Assembly: GCF_051903065.1 (NCBI RefSeq)
Contig: NZ_CP178438.1
Source: Escherichia coli
GTDB taxonomy: Bacteria > Pseudomonadota > Gammaproteobacteria > Enterobacterales > Enterobacteriaceae
Reading direction: 5' to 3' (one strand)
Length of the DNA stretch: 64,000 nucleotides
Positions within the stretch are counted from its first letter, which is position 1. The number at the start of each line of letters is the position of its first letter. The position numbers are program-made. Below are positions 57,001-60,000 of the stretch, in pieces.

Positions 57001-60000
57001 ATACGATTTAACATAATATACATTATGCGCACCAACATAAACCAAGGGAGAATCTAGTCGTTGGCGGTCATGATTGACCTGCTCATTAACAACGACCAAA
57101 CCCCATATCTTACTCTTACTTAATACCGTATTCTCGGCTTAACCGACCGTGCAACCTCAACACATTGGTTTCAACTGCCGTCACCACGTTCTCTGGAAAA
57201 TCTGTCGGTAATGAAGTCTTCACGTTATCCAGTGCTGCCGGAATCATTCTGGCAAAGTCACTCAGGATTTCATGCATCTGCACTTCCGGGAATCTCAGCA
57301 CCTTTGCTGTCGCCAAAAAATGTCGCGGATAAATTTTATCGATTGCCGTTTTTTTGCCTTTGGATGCGTTAAGCCCCATTGCCAGTTTGAGATCGCTGAT
57401 GTGTATTCCCGCGCCACCCAATACCGGAAATGCTGAAATGATGTCGTAAAATGGCGTGAGTCGATAACTGCCGCCAGCCTGAATAAATACGGAGAAGTTT
57501 TTTGCATGGCCATCCGTTGCGCCAATCAACCACTGAAAGACCTGGAATTTCATAAAATCATAGCGATCTTTCAGCGCCTCGCTGGACCCCATCAAAAAAG
57601 CCATGATCCGCGCGATGCCTGGGCCTCCATCTGATTCATATTTCACCGATGAAGGTAAACCGAATGTCTGACACATATCCTCCTGTGGCAAGCGAAGTAA
57701 AACCGTTCGCTCAGCATTCCAACGCCTGTCAAAACGTTCGACCGCTAACGCGCGCACATTTCCCGCTTTAATGATTTCTGCGTCCGGAACATTCAACCCA
57801 AGTTCTTTCGCCAGCAGCAGACAGTAATACTCATTATCAACGCTTTGGCTGAGATCGAGCGTCGCATTGGGCTGCCTGATTTCCCCAATCGGTAATTTAA
57901 TGATGTGCGTCGTCGGCGTTATTCCTTTCGGAATGCACCAGTCATTGCCTATTCTGAGCAGTGCTGTCTTCTCCTGTGCGCCAGCAACCGAGATGCGAAA
58001 GTCATTTTCTTCTCTAATCATGCCTAGCGGGATATCTGCTTTATAAGCCGTTAATACTTCTTCAAGTCTGGCTTCAGTAAGCTTTTCCCATGCCATTATC
58101 GGACGCGTTACGGTTTCGTCTTCGGGTATTAACGTCACGGCACCAACGCTGTCTCGCCCTATTTCTGACAATAAATCAAACGGTTGTCTGGATTTGGCAT
58201 GATAACGTTTAACGATCCGGTCACGTACAATCGGGCTATCGGGTAACAAGTTATCGAAGAAGTTAAATACGGCATCAGAGGTGATATTCCCCCTCTGCAA
58301 TGGCAGCGAAAGTGACAACGGTCTGGCATAACGGCTGGCTAACCACTCCGGTGCATACTTAAAGGTGTGCGCGCCGTTGGCTAACTTCGTTAACTCGCCT
58401 ACCCGCTGGTTGTTCATCCAAGTGACTAGTTTGGGCATTACCACTCCAGATCTTGCTGTTCTGTTGATTCTGGCGAGGCATTTTTCGTGTCGCATAGCGT
58501 CATTGAGAGTTCAAGCGACTGTAAAATCTTAAAAAATGTCGTGAGCGTGGTATTGTCAGGGTTGTTTTCGAAATTGGAAATCGTCGCCTGCTTAATGCCG
58601 ATTTTTTTCGCCAGCTCGCTCTGCGTCCAGCCATTTTGCTGGCGAACCAGTTTCATTGCATTCGCTAATTGCGTTGGGCTATAGATCTTCTGAAAGCTCA
58701 TCATGTCATACGTCCACAGCAAATTTATCCGCTTAAGGGGATATTATCAGTTTTATCCTTTAGTAAGGATAAAGTCAATCTGGAAACACATCTTATCCGC
58801 TGTACGGGATAAACGCTGCGATATCCGCGATCGCGGATAAAAGGGAGGCTTTAAAAGCTTTTTGAAGTTGGCAATATTAAGCCGCATGCCATCTCGACAT
58901 GCGGCTTATACTGTTTACCAGCTATATTTCACTCCCAGCATGCCCTGAGTATCGCTATAGCCTTTATCACCTAGTTGCACACCGACATTCCCCCACAGGC
59001 TAAGGTTGTTATTTACTTTCGCCTCAACCCCGGTACGTACTTCACCGAGATTACGCGCACCATCACGGCTTACGGTTTGACCATTCATCTTCACGGCGTA
59101 GACTTTGCTATTGTTGATCCAGTTCGCTTCAATGTAAGGCTGGAACTCACGCTGTTTACCATCGTCACGCTGGTGATGGCTATTCAGGTAGGTTTTCACC
59201 CCAAGTCGCGTTTGCACGTTTCCGTCACCTTCCGTTTCAATCCGTGTTCCGTCTTTCCGGGTATGGTCAGAATCTTTCACACCCATCCAGGTGATTTGCG
59301 CCTGTGGCTGGACGTACCAGGTATTCAGCGTCCCTTCGCTGCCGCTAAATGTTCCCGCTTCAAAGGTATACCCACCCTCAACAGAGGCCGTCACACCGCG
59401 AGAATCATAGTCGTCAGCAGAACGGTTATCGGAACTGACGCTGTTATCAAACCAGTTATACAGCGCCCAACTGTCAACATAAGCGCCGGTCTTATTCGAA
59501 TCGTTCTGATACCAGGTCGCGTACAGCCCAGCGCTGTAACCGCTGATGCGCCCATCCGATTTATAACCCACACGATTACTCTGAGTATTACTGTGCTGAT
59601 TGGCGTAGCCTGCCATCACGCCAAGATGCCAGCGATCCTGTGCGTTGCTACTCCACTGCGCCAAATCGCCGCCTAGCTGCAATACATACCGGTTAGCCTG
59701 AGTATTTAGCTGGCCGTCACCGGTCCTGAAACGTTCGTGCCCCCCGACATGACGCATCCACATACTGCTTGCCGAACCCTGAGAAAGCCGTGAATCTGTA
59801 TACTGCGGCTCACCCAGACGGTCGTGTAAGCGATGGCTAAACAGCGAGTTGGCTGCGGCAATGTTGCTGATATAGCTTCCGGCCTCCGGGCGATAAACTG
59901 ATGGGCCTTCCGGATCCACAACAGGGGGATTATTGATGGGATCGGGTGTATCCGCTGGCGTTACGCCGTCCCATTTACTGGTCAGATACCAGTTTTTCTC

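Follow-up and report, generated by a model that had tools for sequence, protein, structure and literature searches.

A native, wild-type-like hipBA operon with a four-operator control region in the terminus DNA of an Escherichia coli chromosome

Results

Identification of the locus

A stretch of 64,000 nucleotides from Escherichia coli (contig NZ_CP178438.1 of assembly GCF_051903065.1, one strand; hereafter the window) almost certainly carries, on its minus strand, a native and intact, wild-type-like hipBA operon, which encodes the type II toxin-antitoxin pair HipA and HipB, together with the autoregulatory region that belongs to it. The system is already known: the locus is the same system as hipBA of strain K-12 (b1507/b1508), a relation that goes beyond mere similarity, and nothing was found that contradicts the identification. 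Insofar as they can be read from DNA, all of the defining features of a K-12-type hipBA are present, with the exception of the exact central operator spacing. In particular, the locus, the gene order, the four operator motifs (numbered O1 to O4, O1 being the nearest to hipB), the 10 bp gaps between O1 and O2 and between O3 and O4, and the one-base overlap between the two genes are all the same as in K-12, while the HipA and HipB proteins are 99% and 98% identical to their K-12 counterparts and share the same catalytic and regulatory residues.

The locus is widely distributed within the species. Of the 5,426 E. coli genomes that are complete, 5,419 match a 1,921 bp query spanning dif, hipA, hipB and the operators (57000-58920); 4,564 do so with a query coverage of 80% or higher, and the matched region is annotated as hipA/hipB; the 1.9 kb around hipBA is 95-100% conserved over thousands of genomes. 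Moreover, the window as a whole is E. coli terminus-region DNA whose gene order is that of K-12, running from narZ through gadBC to ydeO, safA, ydeP, a ydeQRST-type fimbrial operon, a yneL remnant, dif, hipA, hipB, yneO and lsrK. It is almost identical to strain 23CRST027, a faecal isolate from a human in Ecuador, to which positions 48000-64000 are identical (0 mismatches over 16,001 bases) and to which the remainder of the window is 99.99% identical, apart from one additional copy of the insertion sequence IS1.

Operators upstream of hipB

A preliminary description of this DNA had placed four TATCC-N8-GGATA palindromes directly upstream of hipB, and exact matches to the motif are indeed located at those very coordinates, within the 114 bp from 58726 to 58839. 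O1 (58726..58743; TATCCCCTTAAGCGGATA on the minus strand) is an exact motif match with the same sequence as K-12 O1, and it ends 21 bp 5′ of the hipB ATG at 58704. It is followed at a distance of 10 bp by O2 (58754..58771; TATCCTTACTAAAGGATA on the minus strand), at a further 22 bp by O3 (58794..58811) and, after another 10 bp, by O4 (58822..58839; TATCCGCGATCGCGGATA), all three of them exact matches as well; O4 is a perfect 18-bp palindrome and is identical in all four genomes aligned. The operator gaps are thus 10, 22 and 10 bp, corresponding to centre-to-centre distances of 28, 40 and 28 bp.

The K-12 operators are separated by gaps of 10, 21 and 10 bp (PMC4150777), and the series observed here departs from that arrangement in its central gap, where an additional T between O2 and O3 brings the length to 22 bp. 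The region had been called canonical at the outset, a term that fits the motif and the number of operators but, strictly taken, not their spacing. Two further bases differ from K-12 within the operators themselves, one in the N8 of O2 and one in the N8 of O3. The O2 base, at 58765, falls in the non-contacted N8, outside the conserved half-sites; it differs from K-12, LH50-c and 88-3493 alike, and a 58-nt segment that includes it has an exact match in only 3 E. coli records (3 of ~20,000).

A chance cluster of palindromes was considered and rejected. Across the whole 64-kb window, there are five exact TATCC-N8-GGATA matches where 0.03 would be expected (standard deviation 0.17), an expectation calculated from dinucleotide-preserving shuffles of the window with no mismatch allowed; none of the 100 shuffles reached five matches, and four of the five are crowded into a stretch of 114 bp. 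The remaining match (TATCCTGCGACCTGGATA; 53016-53033) is located 5.7 kb away from hipBA, inside the gene for a fimbrial usher. Its sequence is also found in K-12, LH50-c and 88-3493, and an operator-like site with one mismatch is present at 53334, 318 bp away from it. Judged by sequence, this fifth site could be a stray binding site for HipB, or it could be coincidental and kept by coding constraint.

The four-operator arrangement also has a more distant counterpart. The hipBA operon of Shewanella oneidensis has four palindromic upstream operators and a one-base gene overlap (PMC4150777); unlike the region described here, it uses a motif of its own (GTGTA-N6-TACAC), places its operators at an even 34-bp spacing and has one of them within hipB (PMC4150777).

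The hipB and hipA genes and their products

The antitoxin gene comes first, with the toxin gene directly downstream, which is the K-12-type arrangement. The hipB gene (58438..58704, minus strand) encodes an 88-amino-acid antitoxin and repressor of the Xre/Cro helix-turn-helix type and is annotated as hipB in the genome that is identical over this region, while hipA (57116..58438, minus strand) encodes a Ser/Thr kinase toxin of 440 amino acids. On the minus strand, hipB ends in ...GAG TGG TAA, and at the junction with hipA (GAGTGGTAATGCCC) its TAA stop codon and the hipA ATG share a single A at 58438. This TAATG overlap was among the features first described, it is the same in the K-12 annotation, and through it hipA is translationally coupled to hipB. 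Longer open reading frames, of 94 amino acids from a TTG and of 459 amino acids from an upstream ATG, were rejected as artefacts of a first-start rule, because the genes are annotated with 88 and 440 codons in both the identical genome and K-12.

HipB is identical to K-12 HipB at 86 of 88 positions. The two differences, A73T and N85D, are both located in the C-terminal tail (residues 73-88), the conserved C-terminal Trp of which (W88) is retained. The protein matches the Pfam family HTH_3 with an E-value of 4.9e-15 and the HipB chains 5k98_B and 2wiu_B of the PDB with E-values of ~1e-54. For HipA, identity to K-12 extends over 436 of 440 residues, with the differences H112R, T343A, S423T and S439I. 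Its N-terminal HipA domain and its C-terminal kinase domain are both recognized above the Pfam cut-offs (Couple_hipA, E-value 2.5e-27; HipA_C, E-value 1e-51), and it matches the PDB chains 2wiu, 3tpd, 3dnt, 3hzi and 5k98 with E-values of ~1e-296, the Shewanella HipA structures 4pu3 and 4pu5 being only a distant match (E-value 4.7e-30). Identity to the crystallized chains is 99% for HipA and 98% for HipB. The hipA gene can be read over its full length, free of frameshifts and internal stop codons, and the protein has been given a RefSeq WP_ accession in the identical genome.

The state of the toxin allele

The hipA7 allele combines G22S with D291A, and hipA7-type changes have been found in clinical isolates (PMC6581861). 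Further, S150A, D309Q and D332Q each abolish the growth arrest caused by HipA (PMC3376134); S150, which adjoins the P-loop, is the residue at which HipA phosphorylates itself (PMC6581861). In the allele carried by the window, none of G22, P86, D88, S150, K181, D291, D309 and D332 departs from the wild type; residues 150-158 form an intact P-loop, SVAGAQEKT, the catalytic D309 stands in the sequence GATDGHAKN, and the Mg-binding D332 stands in PFYDIIS. The translated sequence thereby bears out the earlier reading of residue 22 as Gly rather than the Ser of hipA7, and an alignment that had been proposed for position 291 returns Asp, the wild-type residue.

These residues decide between the possible states of the toxin. 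A high-persistence allele of the hipA7 kind is refuted by the sequence at the known positions and is otherwise extremely improbable: hipA7 is an allele of the same gene in the same operon, but its G22S and D291A changes are both absent here, P86 and D88 are likewise unchanged, and no evidence in support of such an allele was found. An inactivated kinase was also rejected, as S150 with its P-loop, D309 and D332 are unchanged. Substitutions that inactivate the kinase site had been named at the outset as the observation that would overturn the claim of an intact toxin-antitoxin module; they were looked for, and none is present. At the level of the sequence, the module is intact and non-hipA7.

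A subtler possibility is that hipBA is silent or attenuated, the toxin being crippled or altered by H112R, T343A, S423T and S439I. These are, after all, four amino-acid differences from the only well-studied HipA allele, and both neighbouring genes are decaying, so that selection on the region could be relaxed. However, all four substitutions lie outside the catalytic, Mg-binding, P-loop and autophosphorylation residues and outside the known high-persister positions (22, 86, 88 and 291); further, the frame is full length and the surrounding 1.9 kb shows the strong conservation across thousands of genomes reported above. A silent or attenuated operon is accordingly regarded as very unlikely, and an intact, wild-type-like hipBA is preferred by a wide measure.

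Promoter-like elements and their relation to the operators

A -10-like element, TGaTAATAT (TGATAATAT), can be read on the minus strand at 58741..58749, where it extends from the O2-O1 spacer into the first bases of O1; its assignment to a promoter is putative. K-12 has TTATAATAT at this position, which contains TATAAT without the TG, so that a T-to-G change turns the K-12 TTATAAT into the TGATAAT seen here. A -35-like hexamer, TTGACT, can likewise be read from the sequence at 58773..58778 on the minus strand, in the O3-O2 spacer, where it adjoins a T-run with a 1-bp length polymorphism. TTGACT and the -10-like element, each the only good candidate of its kind, are 24-26 bp apart, too far for the two to form a standard sigma-70 pair, so that the role of TTGACT is putative. 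Operators lie on both sides of the -10-like element.

Some limits apply to the reading of this locus as a native autoregulatory region joined to a wild-type-like operon, although none of them contradicts it. A sigma-70 promoter consensus scan of 58600-58960 returned no standard -35/-10 pair, and because of this result the two hexamers, both read by hand, are to be taken as inferential. The overlap of the operators with a promoter is accordingly a putative one, drawn from the -10-like sequence against the background of the literature. Moreover, the operon differs from its K-12 counterpart by four HipA substitutions, two HipB substitutions and an extra spacer base, any effects of which are conjectural. 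Two other scans were negative: no intrinsic terminator was called by a consensus scan of 58600-58960, and no known RNA family was detected by an Rfam scan of 56000-59500 at gathering thresholds.

Two promoter-region haplotypes

The differences from K-12 are natural polymorphisms. To describe their distribution, haplotypes were counted as exact matches (at least 99%) among complete E. coli genomes, as megablast searches with 35-36-nt queries seed on both forms. With the 35-36-nt segment, the 22-bp spacer haplotype is found in 2,225 records and the 21-bp, K-12-type spacer haplotype in 1,767; with a 57-58-nt segment that also covers the -10-like base, the counts are 2,203 for the former, plus 3 records with the O2 variant of this window, and 1,678 for the latter. 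The extra spacer base and the G of the -10-like element are therefore almost completely linked, and the 22-bp haplotype, the commonest in the species, outnumbers the K-12 type at a ratio of ~55:42. Since the natural allele with 22 bp prevails, the exact 10/21/10 spacing is a feature of the reference strain and not of the family. A further marker of the two promoter-region haplotypes is a 13-bp indel upstream of O4: K-12 has 13 bp (GCATCAACGCCTT) between a hairpin and O4, and these are absent here (58840-58870) as well as in LH50-c and 88-3493. A literature search for natural hipBA promoter polymorphism found nothing relevant.

The 22-bp/TGATAAT and 21-bp/TTATAAT forms might be functionally distinct settings that differ in basal expression, in the cooperativity between O1O2 and O3O4, and in persister frequency. 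Two sharply linked haplotypes coexist in the species at the ratio given above; one additional base would turn O3O4 by ~34 degrees relative to O1O2; and the linked T-to-G change replaces a perfect TATAAT by TGnTAATAT, which resembles an extended -10 element. On the other hand, the linkage may reflect phylogeny alone, that is, two old lineages with no selection between them, and other linked differences exist, including the 13-bp indel upstream of O4. A functional distinction is possible but improbable on the present balance.

Several genomes of E. coli O157:H7 match the operator region over O3-O4 alone (query positions 75-114), with "HipA family toxin" annotated over the match, which suggests that the hipBA locus is rearranged in the O157:H7 lineage.

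Neighbouring genes and dif

The preliminary description had set the intact module against two degraded neighbours, and both are indeed degraded. On the downstream side is an AraC-type remnant, a yneL-like pseudogene (56576..56845, minus strand) of 89 amino acids in which only the C-terminal HTH_18/HTH_AraC domain is matched; it is annotated as a helix-turn-helix protein that is "incomplete; missing N-terminus" in the genome identical over 48000-64000, and it is a pseudogene in all four genomes inspected, including K-12 (yneL), LH50-c and 88-3493. On the upstream side is an autotransporter pseudogene of the ECSE_1600 family (yneO-like; 58915..63958, minus strand), in which the beta-domain and autochaperone domains are present. 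Compared with an intact copy of 1806 amino acids in 88-3493, it encodes amino acids 475-1806 and 127-481 in different frames, with a frameshift near 62892-62913, and is annotated as "frameshifted; incomplete" in the genome identical over 48000-64000. An IS1 beginning at 63959 (left end GGTGATGCTGCC..., GGTGATGCTGCCAACTTACTG...), within which the window ends, separates its first 126 amino acids from the rest. The autotransporter gene is a pseudogene in K-12 and LH50-c as well. The contrast between an intact module and its decayed neighbours is thus old and shared among genomes.

Between the autotransporter gene and the operators, a hairpin can be formed on the minus strand at 58872..58913, with a folding free energy of -25.7 kcal/mol and a z-score of -5.25 (0 of 200 shuffles fold as well). 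It begins 2 nt past the autotransporter stop codon, ~33 bp upstream of O4, and its sequence is conserved in K-12, LH50-c and 88-3493. The hairpin has no U-run, and the terminator scan made no call there; it probably serves the autotransporter gene as a 3′-end structure or terminator, and would shield the hipBA promoter from read-through.

The dif site, at which XerCD resolves chromosome dimers, is present on the minus strand as the exact 28-mer GGTGCGCATAATGTATATTATGTTAAAT (57006-57033). It separates hipA from the AraC-type remnant, at a distance of 82 bp from the stop codon of the former and 160 bp from the latter. GC skew turns strongly negative from ~56 kb onward.

Other features of the window

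Further from hipBA, a 768-bp IS1 (46555-47322) interrupts the acid-resistance gene ydeP, flanked by a 9-bp target duplication (CCATGCGGC) at 46546-46554 and 47323-47331. Strain 23CRST027, otherwise identical, lacks this copy, and for that reason the window is taken to come from a very close relative of that strain in which IS1 has hopped once more. In the ydeQRST-type fimbrial operon (51815-56190), the genes for the usher (883 amino acids), the chaperone and the major subunit are intact, whereas in K-12 nothing but a truncated ydeT is retained, the genes for the chaperone and the fimA-like protein being absent; with usher, chaperone and major subunit intact here, the K-12 operon is seen as the degraded version. 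Finally, the stretch at ~6000-12000, between narU and yddG, has a GC content of 36-40%, compared with ~50% elsewhere. It holds a leucine-rich-repeat gene resembling type III secretion system effectors (espR1), fragments of leucine-rich-repeat genes and an OmpC-family porin gene, and it looks like horizontally acquired DNA.

Discussion

Knowledge of the hipBA operon with its four operators goes back to the 1990s, and the structures of the proteins bound to operator DNA have been solved by crystallography. The discovery value of the present locus is low, as hipBA is found in nearly all complete E. coli genomes. Its practical value is modest and lies in the allele, which is wild-type-like and not high-persister, and in the departure of the K-12 operator arrangement from the prevailing one, taken up below. 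With hipBA so close to dif, any hipBA deletion made in this strain must avoid dif. This closeness also matters in recB mutants that lose terminus DNA, where HipA poisons the cells (PMC7326373).

The mechanism established for the K-12 operon, namely GltX phosphorylation, neutralization by HipB and autorepression, should apply to the allele described here, because its proteins are 98-99% identical to those of K-12 and its operator half-sites are perfect. HipB is a Cro-like dimer that bends its operator by ~70 degrees, with one HipA on each flank (PMC3920265, PMC3376134); its binding to the four TATCCN8GGATA operators is cooperative, and it represses hipBA together with HipA, which acts as a co-repressor (PMC3376134, PMC3920265). 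Accordingly read, HipB dimers would occupy the four operators of the window cooperatively and bend the DNA, HipA would join them in HipA-HipB2-HipA complexes, and transcription of hipBA would be switched off by this occupancy, since operators lie on either side of the -10-like element and share bases with it.

Release of the toxin would follow the fate of the antitoxin. Free HipB is degraded by Lon via its disordered 16-residue C-terminal tail (PMC3376134), and the freed HipA inactivates glutamyl-tRNA synthetase, leading to the stringent response and dormancy, before it inactivates itself by autophosphorylation (PMC8262856, PMC6581861). Applied to the present allele, Lon would remove free HipB through its tail; the released HipA would phosphorylate GltX, lowering tRNA charging and raising (p)ppGpp, and a dormant, drug-tolerant cell would result; HipA would later be switched off by autophosphorylation at Ser150.

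The two linked promoter haplotypes could also set different basal expression and repression strength, a proposal made from sequence comparison that is held with somewhat greater doubt than the broader functional distinction weighed above. If it were true, the K-12 reference behind all structural and regulatory models would represent a minority promoter setting, and the rare O2 N8 base could tune one operator further. Whatever their effects, the K-12 combination of a 10/21/10 spacing with a perfect TATAAT is not the prevailing form in the species, a point that is relevant to models of hipBA autoregulation and to comparisons of persister formation among isolates.

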